The translations under genes were made by a program, and so were the position numbers. DNA of 49,508 nt from Catajapyx aquilonaris (lineage: Eukaryota). Position 1 is the stretch's first letter, and each line of letters opens with the position of its first letter. Below, in pieces: positions 1 to 31,158 of the stretch. Location: contig JYFJ02000732.1 of NCBI GenBank assembly GCA_000934665.2, positions 62,001 to 111,508 on the forward strand, read 5' to 3'. Under the pieces are notes generated by a model, which was not told where the DNA came from, searched no databases, and saw only the letters and a list, made by a program, of their open reading frames with translations.

Positions 1-514
1 TGTGATGTGTTGTCAGCCATCCACGCTCCAAGCATGTCTCTCACATCTTGGTTTGATACATCAACCGATCCCTGGCTTTGGGAATCTCGGGGCTTTCCGT
101 GCACGAGCTTCAATCCTGGCCACATTTCGGCCAAATTCTTAATCACTTTGTGTGCAAATTCTCGTCCGTTATTGCTCTGAAGTATAAACGGAGCACCAAA
201 GATACAAAAGATGTCCATTACTTGATAAGCCACTTCCTCAGCAGTTTGAGTTTTCAATGGACGAAGAACTGTAAATTGAGTTATATGATCTTGATAATTC
301 AAAATGAAACAATATTCCCCATCTCGTTCTGACTGCATGTTGATCAGATCTATTTGACATCGAGAATTCATGTCATTCGAAAGAATTGGCTGAACTACCA
401 ATCTCCGTTTGGCTGCTTTCTTCTTTAACTGACATTTCTTGCAAAGAGATATATAAAGTTCAATAACTTTGCGAGTAACATTGGAATACTTTGTCTTCAA
501 TTCAGCTTCCATGA
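1..514 (-). CDS. Exon of gene 1: integrase zinc-binding C-half plus rve-like core, KRBA2/SCAND3/Ginger type; runs off the window edge
   Basis: Manual translation (not in the ORF track): MEAELKTKYSNVTRKVIELYISLCKKCQ...MNSRCQIDLINMQSERDGEYCFILNYQDHITQFTVLRPLKTQTAEEVAYQVMDIFCIFGAPFILQSNNGREF...WPGLKLVHGKPRDSQSQGSVDVSNQD. Phase-1 acceptor tttcag ends at 515. Confidence 0.9.
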
Positions 515-1008
515 CTGAAATGAATAAGGAAAAAAAACTAGTAAAACTTCTGTTGTGCACGTAAGGTTCTGTCATGTTTTCTCTCTCTGTCATTCATGCA
601 CAGAGCAAACAATTTTATGCATTTGAATATTTTATATTTTGCCTTTTTAGGCCAAAAATATTTTGCTGTCAGCAAAAAATTTATTTTTTAATTACATTTT
701 CATGCATGTATACTAGCACAAAAGGTGACTGTTTCCAGTAGATTATAACTAATTCTAAAATAGTTGCGGACAAAAAAATTTTAAACTGTGGTAAACCTAA
801 TATTCTGTGAGCATAAAAGTCAGCACGTAGTGGCCTACAACATATTGCAGCATGGAACCAGACTTGCTAAAATGCTGAACCTGTCAAAAGGCGCTGGCTA
901 CACAAAAAATTTCATTTCCATCCGCAAAGTTGCCCAAAATGGCTGAATAGACTTACAAATCCATAAAAAATCCATTAAAAATCATTAATACAGGTGTTAT
1001 TTACTTAC

Positions 1009-1404
1009 TTCTGCTCTTTTTGTGTCCAAGGCTAAGATGCACAGATTCCAATATATCAAAAAGTTCATCACTGGTACAGAAGTAACGCATGTCCGAACCA
1101 CTTTTACGTGCACCACCGTCAACGAGCTTTTCTGTATCTCCAATTTTCACCACACCGTATCTTTTAATACGTCGGTACTGCTTCGATGTCAAATGCTGAT
1201 TGTTCCGTCGTAATTCATGAGCTTCTTTCACTTCACATAAAATTGTTTGGTAACGGTCAGCATCAAGCATAATGCATCTATCATTACTTGATTCCAACAA
1301 CTCTGTCAGTTTCTCATAAAAAATTTCCTTCACACTTTTGACAGCAGCCGTGGCTACGGACGTCCTACTCTGCTCACATTCATTTGCCAAATTCAGACAG
1401 CTGA
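1009..1404 (-). CDS. Exon of gene 1: N-terminal part of the integrase-like protein (His half of the H2C2 motif)
   Basis: ORF 1001..1429 ends ELFDILESVHLSLGHKKSR. Phase-1 donor a|gtaagt at 1009/1008 joins in frame to the exon at 514. Phase-1 acceptor tttcag at 1405. Confidence 0.8.
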
Positions 1405-1817
1405 CTGAAAGAAGACAAGGGAGGCTCACAACATGTTGATCATGTTCAATGGGGAGAAACTTCCCATTTTGCAGAGTGGGAAATCAGAACCAGCCACAAC
1501 ACAAAATTCACATTGTGGCTATTTCAAAACGACCATGACCAGAAATTTCCATCTGTGGTCATTACGCATAGCCGACAATGCATTGTAGTCATTCTCTTCA
1601 CAAAATGAACATTTTAGAGGTATGTCATCCTGGTCCCAAGTACTCGATCGCGAATCAGGATAATGGTTCTCAAAAAATGTAGAAAGTGGACACCATTGCC
1701 CAAAATCTTTTGCGTCCCCCACAATTGTGTTCAGGTACCCCAGTTTGAAAACCACTGCCCTAATCAAACCTGACTCATGTTACTGGCAAACAATTCATTA
1801 ATGGAGAAGAAGCCTAC

Positions 1818-2124
1818 CAGTGTTAGCGGCATCATTCTGCTGGGTTGCCCTGCTTGAACTGCTTGATGTAGGGACACTATCTGCATTGACGTCATGGTCT
1901 TGCTGACTCCTTGCTTCCAAAACCGATTTCACCAGAGAGGCGTGCTTCGATTCCAAGTGACTCCTGAGGTTCGCGACAGAAGAATCGAAGGACACGTCTT
2001 CCTTGCATATGTTGCACTTGGCACGTTTGTTTGGCAACTGGGTGTAGTGATTCCAGATGGGACTTCTTTTCATCCGCTTCCTTGAAGGTTCTTCACTCGC
2101 ACTTGTAGATTCAATGTCCTGGCC
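1818..2124 (-). CDS. Exon of gene 1: BED-type zinc finger
   Basis: RSPIWNHY...AKCNICKEDVSFDSSVANLRSHLESKH fits the BED pattern W-x-[HY]...CxxC...NL-x-x-H-L-x3-H. Phase-0 acceptor aaacag at 2125, phase-1 donor g|gtaggc at 1818/1817. Confidence 0.85.
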
Positions 2125-2871
2125 CTGTTTGGTAAGTCAAAAGGTAATTTTAATGTCCCACAAAGAGTCATATTCTGCTATTCTCAACCCTAGCTTGAAT
2201 TTTGTCCCATTGCTACTTTATGCACCAGAGCAAGGTAGATCTTCAGGATGATTTTCTTCCCTTTTTATTAACTGTTACATTTAAAAAATAGTTTTTCCAT
2301 TCCCACTTCATGTACTTCTTTTTTTTAAGTACAGTAACTAGAAAATAATTACAGAGTACACAATTCGGAAACATATCAACAGCATGTAAAGTCCTTAGTG
2401 TTTTCCCAATGTTAAAGCCACGTGTTGATCAGCGATGTCGCAGTGATGATGTCACCAAATGATGAGACCATTTGTTTGGGGCGATAATACAAGGTGAAGG
2501 GAAACTCGCTGACAATTGCCAGGTAAACTTATAGTACTCGCAAAACTAATATAGGGATGTGCAATTAGTTTTTGGCTCCGTTGCATACCGTGCAAAGAAA
2601 TAAAAAAACTATGACAAATGTGCTACGTGTACAAGCCCTCTACTATCCATTTTTTACATACTGGCCCCTATGTTTGACAGCGCATATCACATGAACGGAT
2701 AATTCAAAATAATCATAGGACTGTGTCGTCATAATCTCTTTACGGGGTAGCCTTCGATGACCAGGCACACCCACCTGACCATCTCATATGACAACAATGA
2801 AACAAATAGGAATAATTGGGCAAGGCCCTCAAAATTTGACGGCTCTCTCTTCAAGATCAAGAGACACTCAC

Positions 2872-2931
2872 CTGTGCAGAAGATGCCTCATCATTACTGG
2901 ACTCACTGGGGCATTCATTTTCTGATGTGCA
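2872..2931 (-). CDS. 60-nt symmetric linker exon of gene 1 (CTSENECPSESSNDEASSAQ)
   Basis: tttttccag| acceptor and cag|gtgagt donor, phase 0-0, open frame. Confidence 0.6.
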
Positions 2932-3003
2932 CTGGAAAAATAGATGCATTAGGGGACCTGCACGCTAAGAAATATACGGTCGGGTCTCCTGAAACATGCC
3001 TAC

Positions 3004-3318
3004 CTCCAATTTCGGAACAGCGTCGGGCTTTAATACCCGCCTCTTCTGATCAGGTCTGCAGGGAAATAGTGACTGCTTCTCAAAGTGAGCAATGCAAACC
3101 CGATGATGCGACTTTGGCTCATAGGTTGGTGGTAAATTCAGAGACGAGAGCCATTGTCGCATCAATTCGGGCTGTCCGCAGGGAAATGTGAAAAAAATGT
3201 CACATGGTTGGTCGCTTATTTTGTAACGGTGCTGACAAACTACACAAAAGCGACCCCTATATGCACCTATACTGGAACCTCCCTGCTGATCCATGCTACC
3301 ACCACGATCCATGCCCTG
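3004..3318 (-). CDS. Exon of gene 1: THAP (C2CH) DNA-binding domain
   Basis: CVVC...FFTFP...RQWL...RVCIAHF...LKPDAVP carries the THAP signature and AVP box. Phase-0 acceptor ttccag at 3319, phase-0 donor gag|gtaggc. Confidence 0.88.
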
Positions 3319-3889
3319 CTGGAACAAGGTGAAGATATAGCACGTGTTTTTCTGGGGAAGTGCTAAGATAATGTTAACAGATGTTGTGATGGCCAACGGA
3401 GCGGCCAGCTGATAGCAGTCGACGTCAATCCCCCACTTTGATCCCTCACCCTGGGGTTACCGTTCCACGTAGCAAAAAACGGATTGCACCATCGGATTCA
3501 TGAATTTTTACCCTATTTTTAGAGACCAACTTGTTTTTGGAGTGGAGTGTCCCCTTTAAAGAGTAGAGGGACGGATGGTAAAATACGAGGTAAAGTGCAT
3601 GGGTGTCGTACCCGGATTCTTACTCTGAGGGGATTAGATCGCCTATTACACATGGACGACATGTTAGGGGACCAAGGACCTCGTGCTGACAGTATTGCCG
3701 GAACTTTGATGGCCCCCGTATGCATTAACTATGCAACAGAGCCCAAAACTAATTGCACATCCCTGTATTAGTTTTACGAGTACTATCAGTCTACGTGGCG
3801 ATTGTCCGTGAGTTTCCCTTCACCCTGTATACTTGTTTACTTTCGATGTGATTGTTGCACCATCGCTGGTCATATGTAGCTTAACTTAC

Positions 3890-4120
3890 ATAATTTGTGC
3901 ATTCCTGAGGGGCTGCCAAGGGGTCAACAGTAGCATCAGTGGCTGCAGGCAAGACGCACAGCGGCTCTTCATCTGGCGGTTCCTCCTTAACCATGGCCCG
4001 TACGGATGAAGGGCCACTAAATGTCGACAGAGCTTCCTCCTTGAGTGCCACTCGCCAAGTTTCCTCCGTCGTGATCGCCTCCTCTTCTACTTTGACTTCC
4101 CCTTGAAGCGTGGCTGACAT
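3890..4120 (-). CDS. First coding exon of gene 1: acidic psiKxE/W/DPL module
   Basis: MSATLQGEVKVEEEAITTEETWRVALKEE...VKEE...VDPLAAPQECTNY. Acceptor tttcag|ggccATG, phase-0 donor tat|gtaagt. Confidence 0.8.
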
Positions 4121-4260
4121 GGCCCTGAAATGGAAGCGCCGATGACAGTGCAACGTACGTGGATGTGTTTGTGGAGCGAGAACCCCGTTGAAACGAGGCT
4201 GGAACTCACCAGAAGGACTCGACCGCAACCGACGCCAACACTTCTTCTTCACGACTGATG

Positions 4261-4345
4261 GGCCGCCATCTTGGATCAATACAGCTGGGAACGCGGGCGC
4301 ATTCCCGTCGCTGGCCATCCGTTCCTTTGTCCGAACCGCGATGGC
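4261..4345 (-). promoter_or_regulatory. Family core promoter copy (gene 1)
   Basis: + strand GCCGCCATCTT, GGGCGCATTCCC, GTTCCTTTGTCC. Exon-1 donor GTGAGT at 4209-4204. Confidence 0.65.
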
Positions 4346-5243
4346 CTTAAACGCTATCGTCGTGGCAATCGCTGCTTCGGCTCCATGGACAATGTCCAGT
4401 TTGGGGATTTCTCCTAGCTGGGCAACCACAGAAATTATGAAGCTGTACGGGCCAAATGAAAATGCTTTTTATGAATCCTGCCATTCAAGTGTCCCACGAC
4501 TATACGTAAAGAAAACCACAAGAATAATAATAACGGACACCAAACAGTTCTATATATTATCGACACAGGTCTGCTCTCTTCGACAGTCAATTCAACAACT
4601 CCTCCATTCCAAAAAAAAAAACCCTACACACCAAATAAATTGGTCCTATAGCAACAGTTACCGTGACACAATCCACCAGACAACAATACCTGTTGGCAGA
4701 ACTGGTACACTACAAAAAGAATGGCCACCAGAACCCCCAAGAGGAAGACCACTGTTCGATCCCAGCCGGCCATAGGAGCAGATAACCACAACTCGTTCAG
4801 TGACGACTGAAAGTTACCTGTGTGTTGGCCAATGGAATTTCAAAGATTAATCATTAACGTAGGCGTGTAGACCCATCGTCTCTGGCAATGCCTGAAAATA
4901 CAGCTCTGGTGTTGCTCTCAGGTTTGCGATGGTATGGGAAGGCTAGGAGGGCTAGGAAAACAAGCATGCTTAGTTGGTGATGCATCAAAATTGTATCAGG
5001 ATACTTTAGTCTATGTTAGTAAGCCGGAAAAGCGACACGGTCTCTGAGGAAGAACAAGCATGTACCTTTTATACTTAATCCCATGTTCATTATACCAATC
5101 GCGGGCACCCTTTTCGGAGGACGCCCAATTTTCCATTTATTCTTCATTTCCAAATCGCGAGGTGATTGTAGTAGTTGTCCTATAAGAAAAATAACATTTC
5201 ATAAATATTACGTGCTTACACATTTTTGGTGCCTTTGACATAC

Positions 5244-5453
5244 CTCGGTATCATTCTGGTTACCCACTAAGGGTTAACCGCAGGCATCTGGTGACCACCA
5301 ATTTTTCCTCTGTTGTCTTCCACTTACTGTTAGTAGAACAAAGAGCCATTTCAACAGTGGGCAAATCAAGATCAAGGCAAGAGGACAATTCTTCCTTTGT
5401 CATCTTCCACATCTCCTGGCGATCCCTCTGGCGATCATCACGTCAAATGCCAT
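5244..5453 (-). pseudogene. Degenerate, frameshifted copy of the acidic-module exon
   Basis: cag|ATG start. Fragments EMWKMTKEELSSCL, EEKLVVT and NPLVGNQNDTE|gtatgt lie in more than one frame. Confidence 0.5.
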
Positions 5454-6631
5454 CTGTGAAAAAATGACAAATCAGAAGTTGCATCAAGTGGAAATACACG
5501 TCTTCTGGTCTTACTATCGACATGGCAATCCAGTCAGCATTATCTATTTTGACCCATACCCTTCCGCAGGCAAAACCAGGCAAAGAAGAGTCGGGAAGAA
5601 GTCAGTCCACAGCAGAAAACCTATGAAATTCTCACTGTCAGGAAATGAGGACCATTGCAATAGCACGATATGTTCTCACAAATTGTGTAACTCGCCTACA
5701 TCAAGGTAAAGGGTGCAGGTTAGGACAATATTAGTCACAGTGTTGCAAATATATACGCACAAATATATTTTATTACCCTCTGCAAATGACAAACTTAACA
5801 CTGATACCCCATCAGCGTGGCATAATATGACTATTGACACTACTAAGTCTTTCAGCACCCTGACGGCACCCAAGTGTTTCTGAGCATATTGAATCACTTT
5901 CATCTCTCTCTGATATCTGTAATATGCCACCACTGTACAGTACCTATCTTCTCAAGTGAGTTTGTGGTTAATGATCACATCTCTGAAAAAAACTATGGGC
6001 ACAGGACGTGTCTCGCCATACACCATTGGCCGCAAAACTTCACTATGTTTCCCAGTGGGCAACAGTTTTTCCTTTGCTTTCGCAAAGCGCAGGCAGAGTC
6101 TTGATCGCTTGGAAGGAAGCTACGCCTGTGTGCAGGGAATTAAGGGACTACTTTGTAGAAGCAGCCGCAGTGCACTGGGCTGGAAAGGACAACAGTGAGG
6201 CTTTTATTTAGGTCAGGAGAGCTGTCAGAATATGTGCATGCCTTGCATTATTAATGAGCAAATTGTTATGCCCAAATAAAATCTCCATATTATTCACATG
6301 ATTCCAAACTGATGGGAAAGTGAAGAATGGGCAGTTTTCCATATCATATTAACTCTTTTTCCTTTCACATGCAGATGCTGTAACCTGCCTTGTGATGGTG
6401 CAATGAGATGAGAAGTGATGTAGCACAATTTCAATGCGAGCGGAAAGGCCCTGCACTTGTACCAGAGAAGTCAACAGCATGGTAATGTTCTGTTAACAAT
6501 TTAGCATACCTAAAAGTTTCGTTATGTCCACAGGGAAGCATTACAAACTCTTGTTACAACGACTGGGACCATGAGCAATGATGAGGAACAGTAGGATGTG
6601 AATAACTGACCAGCTTTCCAGTGCTGCTTAC

Positions 6632-6902
6632 CTCACTGGTGCTGTCCTGAGTAACTGCTAAGGGATCTGGACCATCACCAGTGTCTTCCGGAATTGTGAA
6701 TACTAACTCTTCTTCATCTTCCGCTTCCATCTTGACCTCGTGTTTGTCCTCTTCTACAATAGTGCAGCCCGTATCACGTTTGGCCTTTTCCTTCTGCACC
6801 CATTTCCATGCCTCTTCCAGAGTTATCAATTGCTCTTCTTCTTCTTCCTCCTCCTCCTCCTCCTCCTCCTCCTCCTCGACTAAAGGTGGGATTGACTTGT
6901 CT
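6632..6902 (-). CDS. Internal acidic-module exon with poly-Glu, downstream of the SIX exon (gene 2)
   Basis: LITLEEAWKWVQKE...EVKMEAEDEEELVFTIP...PDPLAV. Phase-2 acceptor ttttccag matches the SIX exon donor; phase-0 donor gag|gtaagc. Confidence 0.75.
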
Positions 6903-7361
6903 CTGGAAAATATCATTACGGTGTTGAGGTAACGATGCAGAGTACAGGAGGCTGAAGTCCACAGCAGGTGAAATATGCTAAGAGCAAAGCATCCTATCAA
7001 GTGTGTAAGGCTATTTGAAACTTTTAAAATAAAGGTAATTTGCATCATTTTGGTCCAAATATCTATGTTCTGTATCCTTGGTGTGCAGTTCTAGCTTTCA
7101 CTAATAGCTGCCACAAAATACTGCACCAAAAATCTCAGTTAACCAGACAAAGCAGGTGTCTTCCAGATTTCATATCTAACTTCTAGGATTATTTTTGAAA
7201 ATCTGGATGAGCTCAGGGCTCCAAAGTTTGCTCCAAAGTTTGACACATATTACGTACCAGTAAGCTTAATTTGCCTCCTCATTTAGTACACGTTAAAAGA
7301 AAGTAAAATACTGGTACCAATTTTTTTTAAAAAAAGGCAATTTGGAAAGCTCCTTGCATAC

Positions 7362-8471: not shown

Positions 8472-8937
8472 CTGAAATAAAAAAAATCACATAAGTATGT
8501 TTTCTTAAGATGGAAATTACGCAAATCACATGCCAGAAAAATTCCAAGATATTTTTTAAAAAGCCATCTAAAAATTCAGGAAAGGTTCTCAGGTTGTGCA
8601 GAGTTGTGCAAATGTGACTTAAAAAATGCCCAAACTGAGGGTTATCACCTTTTGTCACCATACCCCACAAGCGATGAAAAAAAGTCCCAGTATCTGCTAC
8701 AAATAATTGTACACACCAGTGGCCAATAAGTGAAATAAAATACACTAATAAAATTAGAGAAAATAACTACACACAACTACCAGATGAAGACAACATCACA
8801 CCTACAAAAGAAAATCCTTACTTCCATATACAGCTTGATTAGATTTTCATGTGTTGCGGCATCATTTTCTGCAGAAGGTACAAGGAATGCCATTGAAGGC
8901 TTCTAGAACAACCTTACTAACACCAAAAATTGAGGTA

Positions 8938-11011
8938 CAGTATAACTTCTATAAGTCGAATCTCCATGGGACCGGAAAAAAACCTTCGAGTTATAGAAGA
9001 TTCGAGTTAGAGAAGTTTGAAATTTTTAAAGCACATAACTCTATAAGGAAGCCTACCTTTATGTCCAGAGACGAAAGGTGTTCAAAACTTCTGAATAACA
9101 TACTGTCACTAATACACTACTAATGTTCCTCATTGCTTCGTCGTAAAAAAAAAAACTCCGTAACGGCCATTTATTGCTTAGTCTGCGATTGACTCTCACT
9201 CTGAATAAATGATTCAATAGTCACAATTGAATCGAACACTTCTCTTGGAACGTCGGATCGCGATTCCAGCCACACACGGAGACTTGACACTATTCTGTTA
9301 GCTTCTCTCACTGTCGGGGGCACTGTCTGTGGTTCAGGGTCATCGTCGGAGTCGTCATGTAAATCTTCGCCTTCAGGCTCTTTTTTCTGCGCCACTCTGC
9401 GAAGAATATCTTCTTCCATGGCGTGTGATGCAACTGTAACTCCACTGTCAATGTTGGCATACACATCAAACGTGACCTCGTCAGGTACGACCAAATAATC
9501 GCGCACTCGTTCCCAGGATTCGTCATTTTCGTAGCAACTATCTTCATTTTCTATCTGTTGATCACCTTCCCTAATGAAGCCAGCTTTATGGAAGCAGTTG
9601 ATTAGAGTCGATGTCTGGACTTCGTTCCATGCTGCTGCGATATCTCGGCAGCAATCCAAAAGGGAAATAGTGGGTGCACTGCTGGCACCTTCATCCAAAG
9701 CTTGTATGATCCGCTGAATTATTCTTCTTCGGTACTTGTGCTTCAGGTTCTTAATGATTCCCTGATCCAAGGGCTGCAGCTTGGACGTAGCATTCGGAGG
9801 TAAAAACACGACCTTGATGGCCTTCAACACTACTGACGTTACTTTTGGATGGGCAGGGCAATTGTCGACAAAAAGCAAAATTTGTCGCCTTTCAGACGCA
9901 AATTTTTCGTCGAGACTTACCAGCCACTCCTCGTAAATCTCCGAAGTTATCCATGCCTTCTTATTGGTTTTGTACGTCAAAGGCAGAGATTTAAAGTTCT
10001 TAAAGCAGCGCGGATTTTTCGCCTTGCCAATTAGAAGAAGCGGAAGTTTTTCGGTACCTGCCATGTTGGATCCCACCATGATGGTAACCCGCTCTTTGCT
10101 ATGCTTTCCACCGTAGCACAGGTCATCTTTGAAAGCCAATGTTTTGTCAGGAAGGCATTTAAAAAATAAACCCGTTTCACCAGCGTTGAAAATGTCACTG
10201 TCACTGTATCCACGCAATAAATCTGGTAACACTTGCGATCTCCATTCTTCGCAGTCACTCTGATTCACATCTGCACTTTCCCCACAAGCCTTTTTGAAGA
10301 CGATGTTATTTCTCGTTTTGAACTTGTCCAGCCACCCGACACTTGCTTGAAAATCGTTGTGCCCAAGTTGTTTGGCAAAGTTTTCAGCTTTTTCACGCAG
10401 AAGAGGGCCAGACAATCGAATGTTTTTCTTCCTGAGTGTCATCATCCATATCAATATTGCTTCTTCCACTTCGGGATATCTCACCTCTTTCATGCGCTTT
10501 CTTGATGACTCGCCTGTTGACTCCACTGCTTCTAGTATTGCTTCTCGGTTCTTCAAAATTGATGAGAGTGTGCTGGCAGGTATTCCGAATGCTGCAGCAA
10601 CATCCTTCTTTTTTCCGCTACCCCTCTCCACCTCCCGTATTAATTTGGCCTTGTCTTGCAGGCTCAGGGTCTTTAGCTTGCGCTTCGCCATCGACATCTA
10701 CTGACAGGCAAGAGCCCAGCCACTGTGGTGGAGAATACTCACTGAAATTTTGAACACAAAAGCTTCAACGACCAATATCTGCACCCAAACCAATGACGCA
10801 CATGGCATAACCATACCGTTTCGTTTAAGACGGCCAGGAAAGCAAGGATTACACGTGGCGAGTTACTCGGCGCAGTTGGGGGTTATGCTTAAATTCGAGT
10901 TAGGGAAGTTTATTTCCTATTCTTTTACATTGTGACCAACCAAGCTCATCATTTTCTTCGACTTATAGGGAACTTCCACTTAGGGAAGTTCGACTTATAG
11001 AAGTTTTACTG
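8938..11011 (-). mobile_element. Full-length Tigger/pogo DNA transposon in an intron of gene 2
   Basis: 23-bp TIRs CAGTA[T/A]AACTTCTATAAGTCGAA with 1 mismatch. TA at 8936-8937 and 11012-11013. Subterminal TTCGA[C/G]TTA repeats at both ends. Confidence 0.92.
9171..10697 (-). CDS. Tigger/pogo (TIGD4/TIGD6-like) transposase, 508 aa: CENP-B HTHs plus DDE_1 domain, first catalytic Asp replaced by Gly
   Basis: FGIPASTLSSIL; ASVGWLDKFKTRN; IFNAGETGLFF (canonical NADETGL); LFVDNCPAH; LQPLDQGII. Confidence 0.92.
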   Translation of the reverse strand: MSMAKRKLKTLSLQDKAKLIREVERGSGKKKDVAAAFGIPASTLSSILKNREAILEAVESTGESSRKRMKEVRYPEVEEAILIWMMTLRKKNIRLSGPLLREKAENFAKQLGHNDFQASVGWLDKFKTRNNIVFKKACGESADVNQSDCEEWRSQVLPDLLRGYSDSDIFNAGETGLFFKCLPDKTLAFKDDLCYGGKHSKERVTIMVGSNMAGTEKLPLLLIGKAKNPRCFKNFKSLPLTYKTNKKAWITSEIYEEWLVSLDEKFASERRQILLFVDNCPAHPKVTSVVLKAIKVVFLPPNATSKLQPLDQGIIKNLKHKYRRRIIQRIIQALDEGASSAPTISLLDCCRDIAAAWNEVQTSTLINCFHKAGFIREGDQQIENEDSCYENDESWERVRDYLVVPDEVTFDVYANIDSGVTVASHAMEEDILRRVAQKKEPEGEDLHDDSDDDPEPQTVPPTVREANRIVSSLRVWLESRSDVPREVFDSIVTIESFIQSESQSQTKQ

Positions 11012-11176
11012 TATATTCTAATAGCCACACCAAGCCATAACCACATTATACAACATGCTAATCTGAATGCAACATGATTGGTGAACATGCTCGGAGGGAA
11101 GAATAATCCAAGGCACATATCACACTACACTATACATTTTCAAATATACTTAGCTCACAACTGGGTTGACCATTTA

Positions 11177-12341: not shown

Positions 12342-14249
12342 TTACAGGCGTACAATGGGTACTTTCGGGAGAATCAGTACTTGTCTCTCTAAAGCGTCTA
12401 CTCTGGCCGCCAACTGCCTGGCATCTCTCTCCCTCTGCTCCTCCAGTCGTAGGCGCTTCATCTCCACCTCCAGCCTCTTCTCTTCCATGTGAAAGCGGCC
12501 CTTCTCCAACTGCAGCCTCTGCTCTTCCGTACGAAGGCGGCCTCTCTCCACCTCCAGCCTCTCCCTCTCCAGCACTACCAACAGCTGGGGGCCGTAGTCA
12601 GTATTTGAAGCCCTTTGATTTGTTAGGAGGAGGCTCTGCTGCAACTTATTCACTGAGGAGGCGAGAGGGAATATGTCACCAAGATTACCCATCAGTGCAA
12701 ACAGTTGTTTCTTACCTGCAGCAAAAGATGCTTCTGGAGATGGAGTGGACACTGACTGGGCACCACAGATGGCAGCTTCCCCATGACCACTGGTGGTAGC
12801 TTCCACTTCTTCTTCTTCTTCTTCTTCTTCTGAAGTAACATCTAGTGTCACTTCAGGCACAACTGTTGCATGGGCAGTCTGTGACATAGGCCAGCGTGCC
12901 GGATTCTCCCTGGCTCGATCCACGGCTTCCTGTGCGGTTGTGTCACGCCACTCCGCTCTGGCTCCTTCTGAAGACTCCCTTCTGATTAGCTGGAGGACCT
13001 TCTTCTCCAAATTGGTTAGCTTCGGTACGGGAGGTGCTCTCTCGGCGCCAAGTTTTTGCAGCATTACGACATTGGCCTTCAGCTTGCACTGCAAAATTCA
13101 AACAATTAGTTGAATAATATCCTGTCTCCTGACTGAGTAATATCATTTGCATATACAATTCCTTTAAAATGTGATCTCCCCCTAACAACCTGCGTACCTC
13201 TCTGCGCAGGTACTTCCATTTTTTCCTGGCCTCCTCCCCAGTCCGGTCATTGATTTCAATGGCATTCACAACTTTGGCCACTTCCTCCCATGCGGCCTTC
13301 CTTTCCTGATGGGGATTTCGTACTTCAAAATCCCACGTCCCTTCCCTCAGGTTCTTCCTGGTCTCTAGCTGCCGGACCAGAACCTCCACCTCACGCTCCG
13401 TCCAATTTGGACGCCGAATCTTCTTTGCTGGACATTTCTCCTCCACTATTTGGAACCTTCCCCGAACCAAAATTGCAGTTAAATAAAAATAATGAGGAGC
13501 AGATGCGACAGTAATAGTTTACCTAACATACCAATCAGAATACACATTCACAATACCCATTACTTCAATTTCCATTTTGAAAGCAAATAATGCAAATTCT
13601 CTTCTTGTTAATGAGGAAAAACATGCAGGCATGTCATCACTAATTGCCTTCATTGAATTCAACAAGATTACTTAAAATAACTGCTGGTATTTCTACTGGA
13701 CTTCTGTAATGGGTTTCCAAACATATACCTTTTCTGTCCCTCCTGACTAATCCCAGCATGTTGTACTTGGCCCTCCTGCATACTTTCAACAAGATCTTCC
13801 TCTTGTGGCACCTGGAAACATAAATTCAGTATCAGTAGATGAAAGTAATAATACACCAGCTTACAATGGATTGTTCCATCGATTCTGCTTATGCCTGCAA
13901 CCAGTTTCAGGTAATCATAAGCAACATTGTAGCAACATGTCCTTATTTTAATCCATGTTGTCACGTTCAGTGATTTTGGCCATTGCGTCTATAGTTTCAG
14001 ACGTACCATACTTGCGTCTCCGCCAGCAATTGACAAGGGGTCGTCCTCATCATCTGCATGCGGAATGGCTCCCACCCACTCCTCCTCCTCCAACTTCACC
14101 TCGTCCGCATTAACGGCCATGCTAATGACGGTCGAGTAATCAACGGCGCAGTATGGCGCCTGTCCCTCCTTCATTGCCAGCTCCCAAGCACCTTCATCAG
14201 TCACCAAATCATCGTATGCCCTTTTGTTGGCAGCCACTTCCATCGACAT
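12342..14249 (-). CDS. Gene 3: acidic module + Myb/SANT-like DNA-binding domain + coiled coil (MSANTD4/NAIF1-like)
   Basis: Phase-compatible exons 14249-14007, 13811-13729, 13456-13198, 13088-12342. RRPNWTEREVEVL...AAWEEVAKVVNA...RTGEEARKKWKYLRR; C-terminal ERERLEVE...EEKRLEVE heptads. Confidence 0.85.
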
Positions 14250-26379: not shown

Positions 26380-28377
26380 TTATTTACCTTTAAATGATAG
26401 TTGATCTGTTCTGCCTATACTGGAGAAAAAAAGTTCAGCCATGAAAATTGCGGGACCAAGTAGACATGAAAATACAAGCCAGAAATAAATAGTGCCTCTC
26501 ATCTGGATAATGTTCAATGACATCGATGTCTCGTACAAAACGTTGTTTTTTCGAGAATTATTTACTCCCATCATCAGACACGCATGTTCAAACATCCTTC
26601 TCAATTTGTCCAGAATACCCGAATCCCTGATGTAAAGTATAAACCTGCTAACTATGGGTGATATTAAGCTGTACTTCTCGGTCAGTATACCTGCTAGTAC
26701 TAGGATGTCACTTTCTGGTGCAATCTTGGTGGCCAAATTCCCCGACTTATCCGCGAACTGGTAGCTTCCAGCTGTCAGAACATCTTGGACAGACACGCAG
26801 GAGTGGTCTGTGTCTATGGCTGCCAAGACACAAGTGTTCAAGTCGATATGGTCCACCATATCTTTGGCTATTGAAGCAAATGAATCCAGATTGGTCAGGA
26901 CACTGCTCATATAGGGCTTCATGAAAAGAACCGTTCCCCACGTCCATTTCGGCCATTTCTGGCTCTCCGAAAAGTATGTGGGCAAATCCTCCAATTCAGG
27001 GCTGGCCAAAAACGCGAAGTAAAGAGCCTCGTAACCGCAAATTATCACTAAGGAATACGCCCACCAGAAAGAGATGAATATTCGGGCAGGTTGGCTGCTC
27101 GGAACCTGGTTTGGATTTTCCTCGATCAGGGTGGAAAATAGATATCTCAAGGAATAGAGGAAAAGAGAAGGAGGAGGACGAGTAGTAGTGGAGAAGGGCG
27201 GGCTTAGAAGGGAACCACTTTTTAGTATTTGACATAAAATCAGGCTGCTAATTGTACTTGCCACAAATATAAGTGCCCACATGCCAGGAGTGTACGGCTG
27301 AATGATCGATTTCCAGGAGTAGCTTATCCGTGGAGATCGAGTTATGAAGGTGAAAACGGCAAACCCATCCGGATGAGGGATGTCAGCTACCAAGGTCATT
27401 TCGTCGCGTAACATGCTTACACCAATAACTGCATTTTTCTTAACGATCATTCCCGTAGTACCGGAGTAATTCCCGTCGGGCAAAGGGACGTCGGGAATTT
27501 CCCCATCTTCCAACACCGGGGAATCCATTTTCCAGTCAAAATTCAGAGCCTCACTGATCGGTAACATTGTTGCAACATACGTAAACATGGGCAACTGACT
27601 ATCCAGAATATATTTTAACTCACTCTTGTCTAGCTCAAACGGCAACGATCCGTTCAGAAACCTATTGTGTAGATTCCTGGAATAATCCGGGAACAACTCT
27701 TCAAGAGTCTGTTGCTGATGATCCGCACCGTACGAACCAGCAGTGTTGACCACAGCCGGATGACCTCCGTGGCAGAAGTGACAGTTGCTGAGCAGCGAGA
27801 GTGTCCTGGTGTGGTTGTGGTAGATCATCCCGAGGGAGAAGAGCATCCTCTCTGCGTCCGGGTGCAAGAGGACGTCCCTCACCACACTGGATGATGGTCC
27901 ATCAGATGAAGGCGTCCAGAAGATGAACCTGTCCCTGTTGGTCTTGATCCGGACGATGGAGGCCAGGTGTCGGAGGAAGGGCCTGAGGTGGTGGCGGGGC
28001 TGGCCCCGGGGCAGGGCCAAGAGGAACAGCCCGCAGTTGTGGAGGTGCCTGGCCCTGGGTCTCTCCAGCCAAGAGAACCAGTACTCAGGTCTGTTGGGGG
28101 TGGACTGAGGCAGGGATGGTGACCACCGGATGGACAGCACAGGAGATGAAGAGGACTGGACCTGTTTCAGGAGGGGGGTCATCTGATGGTCAAATGAGGA
28201 GTCCTGACCTGTGGCCAGCACCAGGAGGCAGTCAGGGTCCTTCTTCTGGATCCGGAGCACCAAGGATGCCACCAGAGAGGCCTCTTCTTCCTCCGCTGGA
28301 TTGATCCGCATTCCACTCACTCGCAACTCTCCTTCACCCAAACACAAGAGAACAAGGGCCAACAGTGCTCGATCCAT
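26380..28377 (-). CDS. Intronless divergent ionotropic receptor (IR/iGluR-related chemoreceptor)
   Basis: Likely start MDRALLALVLLCL (signal-peptide-like). IIQPYTPGMWALI (M1), RIFISFWWAYSLVIICGY..LASP (M2), IRDSGILDKL, SLNIIQMRGTIYFW (M3). Confidence 0.85.
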   Translation of the reverse strand: MDRALLALVLLCLGEGELRVSGMRINPAEEEEASLVASLVLRIQKKDPDCLLVLATGQDSSFDHQMTPLLKQVQSSSSPVLSIRWSPSLPQSTPNRPEYWFSWLERPRARHLHNCGLFLLALPRGQPRHHLRPFLRHLASIVRIKTNRDRFIFWTPSSDGPSSSVVRDVLLHPDAERMLFSLGMIYHNHTRTLSLLSNCHFCHGGHPAVVNTAGSYGADHQQQTLEELFPDYSRNLHNRFLNGSLPFELDKSELKYILDSQLPMFTYVATMLPISEALNFDWKMDSPVLEDGEIPDVPLPDGNYSGTTGMIVKKNAVIGVSMLRDEMTLVADIPHPDGFAVFTFITRSPRISYSWKSIIQPYTPGMWALIFVASTISSLILCQILKSGSLLSPPFSTTTRPPPSLFLYSLRYLFSTLIEENPNQVPSSQPARIFISFWWAYSLVIICGYEALYFAFLASPELEDLPTYFSESQKWPKWTWGTVLFMKPYMSSVLTNLDSFASIAKDMVDHIDLNTCVLAAIDTDHSCVSVQDVLTAGSYQFADKSGNLATKIAPESDILVLAGILTEKYSLISPIVSRFILYIRDSGILDKLRRMFEHACLMMGVNNSRKNNVLYETSMSLNIIQMRGTIYFWLVFSCLLGPAIFMAELFFSSIGRTDQLSFKGK

Positions 28378-30146
28378 CTCTCCGGACTGCCACACTGTTC
28401 GATTTCTGCCCCATTTATATACCTCGACTCCAATCGCCAAAAGTTGACCAAATAACCATCAGTCATCACATTTTAACTCTCATATGCAGCTCTCTGATAC
28501 GTTGCATTTAGTTTTCCGAGTGCTACAAGTCGTGCGATATTGCACGACGCCTAATAATTAGCAATCGCTAAAATATTTCACTCCGACAGATTACATGGGC
28601 AACGAATGTTGCATGCTGTCATGTCAACTGATGTCTTGACAATAGGGGGCTGTCATTTTTGTTTCGCTTGACAACACTGGAGATGAATTGTAGGTATTAC
28701 GGATGTCAATTGCAGTGTATTTTTCCTAAAGTGCCTGTAAGTGAGCACTTTGAGTAATATTTCATTCATGAGCCATCGTTATTTTCTTACATAACTGTAA
28801 GGTTCGAATGAAAATGGCCCTTGAACCCTTCATGGATATAGTGAAGTAAATGTGTGAAATGCTGAGACAAAAATCAATTGAATGGTCCAACAGTGACTAT
28901 GATCTCAAATATGTCAGATTGAAAAAAACTAATCATATCGTTATGTGCAACATACCATGAAAAGGACGAGAACATAAGCAAATGGAAGCAGAGCATGAAG
29001 TAGATTAACTGCAACTAATGAGACATCTCAATTATTTGATTCGATTGCATGATCACAATAGCAAATAAAAAACAAAGGATACATTAGGCTTATATAATGT
29101 TACAAGTTAGTATTGTTAGCAGAAAAGACGACCACCTTTTTCTGGATTTATTTTTGACCACTCAACAGTACTACTGTCATCACATTTTGATTTAAGAAAA
29201 ACATCATTACGCGCCTTCCTCATCTTCATCCCAGAATGGGTTATGTTGTGCACCACAAAGCGACGATATCTTCCTGCCGAAGACTATTGCGGCAGTAGTG
29301 GCATGGGAAGCCTCCACAAGCCACATCAGCATGTCGGGGGAATCCATCCTAAAAAAGTGAAGCCCTGGAAATGATCAAATCTGGCATGACTTCTCCTGAG
29401 CAATGGTGCCTCTGCTACTTCCAAAAACTGGTCCAGAGCAGCCAAAAGGGACTGGAGCTGCATTGAGAAGTGCACACCAGCCCAAAACGTGCCGAGACGC
29501 TATGAAATATGCCACACCCAGTGGCGGATCTGCTTTGAAACTATAATGAAGCTGGGCGCACACATGGCCGCATCAACCTCTTCCTCCCCGCCAGCTGCAC
29601 CCAAAACGAATTGGTGCAAAATCGGAGCCTTTTCATTGTTATTAAACCCAAGCAGGAAGAAGAGCCTGTTTATTACACCTGCGGTACATAAACAAACAGC
29701 GTACATAACGTTTACTCAGCATAAATGTCAGGTCATCATGGTGATCCCCAAGAGAGAAGTTGGTCCTGTGAATATCTTGGCCGATGCTCCAGAGTGTGGC
29801 ATTCCAGTGTTCTAAGTGGTTTCTCCTCCAGTGAACGCCTTCAATGAGTCGGTACTCCCAATATTCAGATTATGGTACGGTGACAGGGCAATAACATACA
29901 AATGGCAGACGAAGTGAATGTGTGAGAAACACTGCATGCAAACCTTGGGAAAAATTGATAGTTTTTGACATTATGCAATTTATCGGGCACATCACTGGAC
30001 AGACTCCGGGTTGTTATGCCAGTATTTCTGGATACTTTAAACGAATGTATCACTAAACTATTTCTGACTTAGATGACAATTACACGGCTTATCTGCTGAA
30101 CTAGTCATCACTTGGTGTGTCAACGTGAGCTGCACTTTAATTAGTG

Positions 30147-31158
30147 TTAAGTGGCAGGTACATTGTTCCTCCCAGTGTGAACTTGCAAGTGCTGTTTGAG
30201 ATGCCATGAAAGTGCAAAACTTTTTTGGCAAAACTGGCAAGAGTACCGTTTCCCTCTGGTATGAACTTTCCTGTGCTGTTCCAAATGCCACCACGTGGCA
30301 AATTTTTTGGGGCATAATTGGCAACGAAATGACTTGTCTTCTGTGTGAATCTTTACGTGTTCTTCCAAATGCTCTAGTGTAGCAAATTTCTCCTCACAAA
30401 TTTCGCACGATAACAGGCTGCCTTCCTCACTTACCCGACGACTAAACAAGTTCTCTCCCGTATGAGTAATCATATGCCTTTTCAAATCAAAAAGCTCCCT
30501 AAATTTTTGATTACATATCTCACAACTCAATGGATTATCCTCTATATGAGTCATCATGTGGTCCTTCAAGTGCCCTAAACGACAGAACGTCCTTTGGCAT
30601 AAGTGGCAGGTAATTTGCTTCGTAACATTGTGAACTTTCATGTGCATTTTCAAGTACATTAACTTTGTAAATTGCCTCTGGCACAACTGACAAAAGTGTG
30701 ACTCCTCTTCTCTGTGAATCTTCATGTGCTGCTTCAAATCAACTAGCACTGCAAATTTCATCTTACAATTTCGGCAACAAAACACATTGTCTTTCTCACT
30801 AGTACAATCTTCTAACTGTGTTCTCTTCTTTCCATGACCATTGTCGGATTTCTCCCGCACCATCTGAAATATGCATTACATCATGAGTTAGCTGCCTGAT
30901 TGCTTTCCACCAACGATGCCATACCCTGCTGGTCCCTTCAGTACGACAGACGTCCAGTGGGTCGTCCGCATCCTCAGCAGCGTCTGGTGTTGCCACAACC
31001 AGCTCTTCTTCCACCGGCTCCAGCTTAACCTGGCAGACTTCCCCAGAGCAGTTCCTCGCATGCTCTTCCATACTCATCAGCAACTCCCAAGTGTCCTCTG
31101 CAGTTGTTGTTCCTACTGCTTCCTCCACCTCCTCCTTAATAACCACCTCACCCGACAT
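30147..31158 (-). CDS. Gene 7: acidic module + 7 C2H2 zinc fingers
   Basis: Exons 31158-30925 and 30863-30147, 61-nt phase-0 intron. Confidence 0.9.

Follow-up and report, generated by a model that had tools for sequence, protein, structure and literature searches.

KRBA2 and SCAND3, both mammalian, are the textbook cases of Ginger2 integrases turned cellular genes. The integrases of both proteins derive from GINGER2 (Llorens et al. 2012, PMC3575427), and Ginger2 elements themselves are defined, in Bao et al. (2010, PMC2836005), by terminal inverted repeats (TIRs) of 50–180 bp, TGTNR ends and 4-bp target-site duplications. Here we describe a gene on the minus strand of positions 1-4273 of a 49.5-kb stretch of eukaryotic DNA (contig JYFJ02000732.1, positions 62,001 to 111,508; the whole stretch is referred to below as the window), in which an integrase of this type follows an acidic module, a THAP finger and a BED finger in one spliced reading frame. 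The gene is probably a host-transposase fusion, born by splicing capture within a cluster of lineage-specific zinc-finger genes.

The gene model was rebuilt from the window sequence, and the six minus-strand exons given in the original prediction held up, with GT-AG borders, phases 0,0,0,1,1 and no stop. Each acceptor is an AG after a pyrimidine tract, and the donors are, in order, GTAAGT, GTAGGC, GTGAGT, GTAGGC and GTAAGT. The 1823 coding nt yield 607 stop-free codons, with incoming exon phases 0,0,0,0,1,1; no stop is reached by base 1, so the gene continues 3' beyond the window. Transcript-type contigs were taken from a single public sequencing run (X1), for which the kind of library is not recorded. 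The gene and the elements associated with it comprise:

4262..4273, minus strand: promoter-proximal motif CAAGATGGCGGC, with 6 matches in the window at ≤1 mismatch
4210..4268, minus strand: exon of the 5' untranslated region (5'UTR), from an X1 contig, upstream limit not fixed, followed by an 85-nt GT-AG intron at 4209-4125
3890..4124, minus strand: exon 1, start codon at 4120, coding part 4120-3890; a 77-amino-acid acidic module, covered by an X1 contig with 0 differences
3004..3318, minus strand: exon 2, phase 0 to 0; THAP C2CH zinc finger, by Pfam and alignment to THAP1
2872..2931, minus strand: exon 3, 60 nt, phase 0 to 0; acidic and Ser-rich linker, joined to exon 4 by an X1 contig
1818..2124, minus strand: exon 4, phase 0 to 1; BED zinc finger, by Pfam, with an X1 contig
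1467..1618, minus strand: 5' terminal non-coding fossil of a Ginger2 element, in intron 4, found with an nhmmer profile
1009..1404, minus strand: exon 5, phase 1 to 1; former 5'UTR, N-terminal region of Ginger2, and the His pair of the HHCC finger
515..1008, minus strand: intron 5, 494 nt; site and phase match the Ginger2 intron of ~80 nt
1..514, minus strand, leaving the window: exon 6; the two Cys of the HHCC finger and the greater part of the integrase catalytic core, where D55, N114 and D151 occupy the catalytic positions
3730..3830 and 2487..2587 (the latter in intron 3), no strand assigned: inverted-repeat arms of 101 nt, 89% complementary

The domain assignments rest on profile matches and on signature residues. 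Exon 2 was matched by the THAP family of Pfam (E 9.8e-12) over positions 1-86 of the 87 in the profile; it also aligned to the human THAP1 structure 2ko0 (E 6.5e-5) at the FxFP, W, C-x2-H and AVP positions, and the signature C-x2-4-C ... C-x2-H, FxFP, W, AVP is present. Exon 4 was matched by zf-BED (Pfam E 2.3e-11, 43 of 44 profile positions), has C-x2-C and H-x4-H in its translation, and matches the ZBED1 structure 2ct5 weakly (E 0.15). The rve match in exon 6 (Pfam E 4.8e-5, 24.0 bits) lies under the Pfam cut-off of 32.6, as do the scores of bona fide relatives. Exon 6 is 70-73% identical to proteins named KRBA2-like or SCAND3-like by NCBI, mostly from insects (120 matches listed), which carry Integrase_H2C2, rve and Znf_SCAND3 (Pfam); a profile of this integrase family matched the integrase of prototype foamy virus (PFV) with E 7e-14. 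A structure model of exon 6 had a predicted local distance difference test score (pLDDT) of 48, too poor for fold comparison. The exon 5/6 junction is fixed to the residue, because exon 5 aligns to residues 1-108 and exon 6 to residues 107-279 of one relative (P0007), colinearly and gap-free at the joint. An H-x4-H at the end of exon 5 and a C-x2-C at the start of exon 6 make up the HHCC finger, as in the Integrase_H2C2 relatives. The rebuilt model, Pfam and the relatives together support a single spliced frame in which the acidic module, THAP and BED are combined with a Ginger2/KRBA2/SCAND3-type integrase. Pfam found neither KRAB nor SCAN in exons 1-4, and Rfam and tRNA scans of the 49.5-kb window returned no match.

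The origin of the integrase exons was traced through 80 related DNA loci (L001-L080) taken from metagenome contigs. These loci form a large family of 2.4-kb Ginger2 elements in which an intron of ~80 nt splits the HHCC finger, and many copies have stops. In its HHCC finger and integrase core, the window shows 70-74% identity to elements of 2.4 kb that are bounded by TIRs and have TGTTA ends. L005 and L018, its closest relatives at the DNA level, are both of this size, with TIRs ending TGTTA...TAACA, which fits the TGTNR pattern of Bao et al. (2010). The relatives and the published classification (PMC3575427) place the integrase core in the GINGER2 clade. An nhmmer profile was built from the 5' ends of 23 distinct TIR-bounded relatives (33 found), and its positions 16-158 matched 1618-1467, within intron 4 and in the correct orientation (E 2.9e-11, 37.1 bits). 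The other matches in the window were a weaker one on the plus strand of the same region, at 1438-1535 (E 2.1e-5), and a remainder at E ≥0.11; with the same profile, the terminal 15 nt of the element were not recognisable at the fossil, and the 3' end of the element falls outside the window.

Further marks of the transposon persist downstream of this fossil. In the profile alignment the Ginger2 ATG falls on an ACG at 1351-1349, and the preceding bases 1404-1352 are 18 codons of former transposon 5'UTR that are now coding; the Ginger2 N-terminal region follows from ~1345. The acceptor AG at the 1404 position is hinted at in 3 of 4 transposon copies aligned with MAFFT, in a stretch that nhmmer does not align. 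At the site and phase of intron 5, 57 of the 74 loci that include both flanks show a gap of 40-150 nt ending in TTTCTTTCAG immediately before TCATGGA; a further 8 loci, more distantly related, have no intron there. The intron has been enlarged, from ~80 nt in the closest Ginger2 copies to the present 494 nt. Only one integrase copy occurs within the window. Nothing resembling any of exons 1-4 was found in the 80 Ginger2 loci, and THAP or BED Pfam families were found in none of the 120 related proteins listed; exons 1-4 therefore lie outside the transposon. The original prediction had derived the gene from three transposon sources, and of these the integrase stands, with a Ginger2 fossil in place; a P, Kolobok or hAT origin of the THAP and BED exons, which none of the 80 Ginger2 loci carries, would be conjecture. 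It had also held that integrase exons belonging to a multicopy TIR-flanked Ginger element would speak against a host gene; they do belong to a Ginger element, one whose 5' end is recognisable, but that same element is without its start codon and two of its catalytic residues.

The X1 contigs cover exons only, two intronic repeats excepted, and their alignments end at the exon borders 3890, 2931, 1818 and 1405, far beyond chance. Intron 3 (2871-2125) is bridged by a contig with its joint at 2123/2871 (cut +1), skipping 747 nt with GT..AG on the minus strand. The 85-nt 5'UTR intron (4209-4125), which was absent from the original prediction, is bridged likewise (joint 4123/4209, cut +1; CT..AC on the plus strand), by a contig of which 234 letters fall on 3890-4123 and 60 beyond the intron. 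One contig covers 1818-2123 of exon 4, and two others cover 1-61 and 70-238, the first of them extending past base 1, all with 0 differences; the exon pieces listed in the X1 table likewise have 0 differences, the N114 and D151 codons included. The alignment of the exon 5 contig starts at 1405, and the 10 letters preceding it do not match the intron. Cover was nil on exon 2 (3004-3318), on 239-514 and on 1009-1172, which we give no weight either way.

The N-terminal part of the gene ties it to its neighbours. Exon 1 is 38% identical to 18716-18519 (E 7e-5) and to 6826-6635 (E 2e-3) by tblastn against the window, and its core motif is common to four further exons of the window. An alignment of 9 modules has an invariant DPL, which in every one of them is followed after ~9 codons by a phase-0 donor. 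All six neighbour modules examined for a partner are followed, 57-3100 nt downstream and with a phase-0 acceptor, by an exon of 6-13 tandem C2H2 fingers. Judging by sequence, at least seven neighbouring genes, of which six encode C2H2 zinc fingers, draw their first exon from the family of the acidic module. The neighbours have a short Glu-rich exon before a single C2H2-array exon, a layout of the FiNZ type; in the gene under study, THAP-BED-integrase stands where the neighbours have the C2H2 array, and no C2H2 remnant was found within 1-7000.

The promoter region gives a second link to the cluster. The motif CAAGATGGCGGC has its 6 matches all on the minus strand, against 0.13 expected, and 6 were reached in 0 of 100 shuffles. 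The motif is part of a longer block, GGGAAyGCrCCC ... TCCAAGATGGC, which the gene under study shares with the upstream regions of two module exons, at 31158 and 36032. When the promoter and first exon of the gene were compared with the window by blastn, the self-match alone appeared. The cluster itself occupies 15152-48722 on the minus strand and holds at least 6 genes, each with an acidic first exon and an exon of 6-13 C2H2 fingers. Some of its introns are only 57-61 nt long, and one copy of the module, at 36032-35811, has no paired finger exon.

We turn to how such a gene could have arisen under the explanation we favour. A Ginger2 cut-and-paste transposon lies downstream of the BED-finger exon, with its 5' end in intron 4. 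The acceptor at 1404, within the element and upstream of its former ATG, opens the exon that reads the 18 former 5'UTR codons; the transposon ATG has become ACG, and the transposon's own short intron has been retained and enlarged. The cluster-type promoter motif, acidic exon, THAP, linker and BED finger come from the upstream part of the gene. These features match the capture steps given for tetrapod host-transposase fusions in the preprint of Cosby et al. (10.1101/2020.05.07.082677): insertion of a transposon into or behind a gene, joining of an acceptor within it to the exons upstream, and fixing of the frame. The resulting protein would act as a sequence-specific DNA-binding regulator and not as an integrase: THAP, BED and the HHCC finger and core of the integrase would bind DNA and multimerise, and the acidic module would be the same effector that the zinc-finger neighbours use. 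That the ends of Ginger2 elements are its binding target is a guess.

DNA integration would have been lost, given an Asn in place of the second catalytic Asp and an Asp in place of the catalytic Glu. The triad reads D55, N114 and D151 (D-N-D) against D-D-E and is thus not intact. Among the 120 relatives (matches listed), position 114 is D in 117 and position 151 is E in 119; in the alignment with PFV integrase the two positions fall on the Asp of SDxG and the Glu of VER, which we take to be its catalytic D185 and E221. Deviations were counted over 54 columns conserved at ≥95% among the 120 relatives, and the window differs at 8 of them (D58N, K79Q, K89Q, D114N, N121H, H143D, E151D and R152V), a deviation as high as this being found in only 1 of 119 predicted proteins. 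The count of 8 changed columns in 54 was considered as proof of domestication and rejected after calibration on decaying copies.

Several observations weigh against the interpretation as a captured and functional host gene. An RNA check had been proposed for all five of its junctions; in the X1 contigs intron 3 is bridged, while the other four, exon joints 1-2, 2-3, 4-5 and 5-6, have no bridging contig, so that the inclusion of THAP and the BED-integrase joint are predictions of the gene model. As to the catalytic changes, the chance that two of the three catalytic residues fall among 8 changes in 54 columns is ~0.054, and an E to D change alone need not abolish activity. The ratio of nonsynonymous to synonymous substitution (dN/dS) is 0.05-0.11 against the closest transposon copies, at a proportion of synonymous differences (pS) of ~0.7, where synonymous sites are saturated, and such a low value may, from the sequence comparison, stem from the transposon's active life. 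The THAP exon had no relative when compared with longer proteins (32 candidates), so no orthologue was found, and the original claim of a host gene, if that means one maintained by selection, is not supported. Finally, the acidic module is a candidate effector with almost no relatives and a fold of low confidence: it belongs to no Pfam family and had no usable Atlas match, a profile of the 9 modules against 1.84 billion representatives returned a single 55-amino-acid fragment only, and its AlphaFold model has a mean pLDDT of 62 with one short helix at 18-27.

In an explanation that we regard as unlikely, the chimera is an unselected by-product: a fairly recent Ginger2 insertion in an intron or the 3' region of an acidic-THAP-BED gene would give rise to a minor, functionless chimeric isoform. 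The true downstream exons would then lie beyond the window, and the open frame would reflect youth, an extension we likewise hold to be improbable. One X1 contig does leave the end of exon 4 into 83 letters foreign to the window, and exon 4 therefore has a further partner, which also counts against the favoured explanation. Stop-free transposon copies nearly as divergent as the window exist, since 3 of 10 stop-free, gap-free full-length genomic copies have 6-7 deviations against the 8 here, again to the disadvantage of a captured regulator. The 5' non-coding end is detectable though synonymous sites are saturated against the same relatives, and a very old insertion is therefore disfavoured; young tetrapod fusions do coexist with parental transcripts, according to the Cosby et al. 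preprint. Set against this, the transposon ATG is gone, the 18 codons of former 5'UTR contain no stop and keep the phase of exon 4, intron 5 has lengthened from ~80 to 494 nt, and exon 5 has been joined to some upstream partner, as the 10 non-intron letters of its contig indicate. Moreover, the 302 transposon-derived codons here have no stop and no frameshift, whereas 7 of 12 close copies carry 1-4 stops in the same 170 codons, one copy pair having a dN/dS of 1.06. Under the favoured explanation of a captured fusion gene, the extra partner of exon 4 and the recognisable transposon end suggest a fusion that may be young and may exist alongside a parental isoform.

Much less probable is that two transcription units have been wrongly joined, with exons 1-4 forming one gene and the Ginger2 remnant being transcribed separately. 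Transposons carry their own promoters, and the exon 4-5 junction has no bridging contig; yet the contig alignment begins at the predicted exon 5 acceptor and is preceded by the 10 non-intron letters, the transposon start codon is gone with the next in-frame ATG inside the N-terminal region, and the 4-5 joint is open only in the predicted phase. Scarcely credible is a Ginger2 variant with extra N-terminal fingers, mobile as a whole unit: THAP and BED often serve as N-terminal DNA-binding domains in transposases of other superfamilies, but the 5' end fossil sits downstream of the BED exon, neither finger occurs in the related loci (0 of 80) or the related proteins listed (0 of 120), and exon 1 is common to the neighbouring zinc-finger genes.

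The THAP exon has a setting of its own. The 101-nt inverted-repeat arms bracket exactly exons 2 (THAP) and 3; TA adjoins both outer ends, and the window holds only two copies. In X1 the arm repeat is multi-copy, with a depth of 35-83 in the arm bins against ~3 on the exons. Going by the repeat layout, either a 1.34-kb TIR element could have brought in exons 2-3 or two insertions could flank them, and two flanking insertions could promote the skipping or circularising of these exons.

A wider version of the favoured explanation may be put forward tentatively, in which a probable arthropod lineage has independently re-invented the KRBA2/SCAND3 design: a portable effector cassette, made of the promoter and acidic exon of a fast-duplicating C2H2 cluster, would have produced a selected regulator, possibly a repressor aimed at Ginger2 ends. 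With equal reserve, the cassette would be an undescribed analogue of KRAB or FiNZ, shuffled onto a catalytically crippled Ginger2 integrase that has THAP and BED fingers and onto a SIX-type homeodomain gene 3 kb away. An exon encoding the SIX1 SD and a homeodomain lies at 7831-7362 on the minus strand (Pfam E 1e-29 and 2.9e-11). It can splice canonically and in frame into the acidic module exon at 6902-6632, giving 247 stop-free codons, and because the SIX1/homeodomain exon can join the module in frame, the acidic exon would stand on a third kind of DNA-binding domain. With three such kinds of partner inside a span of 50 kb, the acidic exon family may represent a new effector domain.

Several other features were observed in the window. 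At 8936-11013 lies an apparently intact transposon of the pogo/Tigger type, with a 508-amino-acid open reading frame (ORF) carrying CENP-B_N, HTH_Tnp_Tc5 and DDE_1 (Pfam) and with 25-nt TIRs that are 96% alike, start with CAGTA and have TA on both sides. An ORF at 12943-13518 on the minus strand has a Myb/SANT-like domain (Myb_DNA-bind_5, E 1.1e-11), a domain type often linked to Harbinger-derived genes. An intronless ORF of 692 amino acids at 26380-28458, minus strand, has a weak match to ligand-gated ion channels (Lig_chan, Pfam E 1.6e-6); no relative scored among 8000 candidates in a word-based search, and its nearest Atlas clusters are ionotropic receptors of Arthropoda. Taken with the introns of 57-61 nt, this gives a lead, but no more, to a protostome host.

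No description of a THAP-BED-Ginger2 fusion was found in the literature at the level of titles and abstracts; other mixed architectures are reported in a survey of invertebrate transposon-derived factors (PMC10027918). Compared with Ginger2/Tdd transposons, the gene shares the HHCC finger, the integrase core, the intron position and the 5' non-coding sequence, but differs in its lost start codon, its D-N-D triad and its foreign upstream exons. It resembles KRABINER, SETMAR and PGBD3-CSB (Cosby et al. preprint) in having an acceptor inside the inserted element and a DNA-binding part of a transposase fused to a host regulatory domain, whereas those tetrapod cases come from mariner, piggyBac and other superfamilies. 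The neighbouring genes recall the FiNZ and KRAB zinc-finger genes, being clustered and having a short Glu-rich N-terminal exon and one C2H2-array exon, a likeness of layout; no sequence relationship to either was found, none having been directly looked for. Such an exon layout is described for FiNZ and KRAB zinc-finger genes by Wells et al. (2023, PMC10547256).

The closest parallels remain the two mammalian genes. Like SCAND3/ZBED9, the gene is a chimera that brings together the N-terminal domain of a zinc-finger family, a Ginger2 integrase and one more module of transposon type, and the Znf_SCAND3 Pfam family is present in the relatives of its integrase; SCAND3/ZBED9, however, adds a C-terminal hAT (Buster-like) transposase part, while the additions here are the N-terminal THAP and BED. 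The parallel with KRBA2 proved closer than the original prediction had seen, in that the acidic exon belongs to the N-terminal exon family of the cluster, as KRAB does for mammalian zinc-finger genes. In both cases a Ginger2-clade integrase stands behind the N-terminal effector exon of an expanding zinc-finger family of the host, with effector and integrase on separate exons (Llorens et al. 2012, PMC3575427). The present gene differs in having a local acidic exon instead of KRAB, together with THAP and BED fingers, and in an integrase split by an inherited transposon intron, where that of KRBA2 lies in one exon. Because it has no KRAB or SCAN, has the extra THAP and BED and has an integrase split by the transposon intron, the gene is neither an orthologue nor a member of KRBA2/SCAND3, and because the host is probably a protostome, the capture would be independent of that of mammalian KRBA2. 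If this is true, a second independent capture would suggest that the combination of a zinc-finger family effector with a dead integrase recurs and is not a mammalian accident. Because the locus still has the 5' end and the intron of the transposon, as well as its start codon in mutated form, the steps of capture are plainer here than in the mammalian genes.

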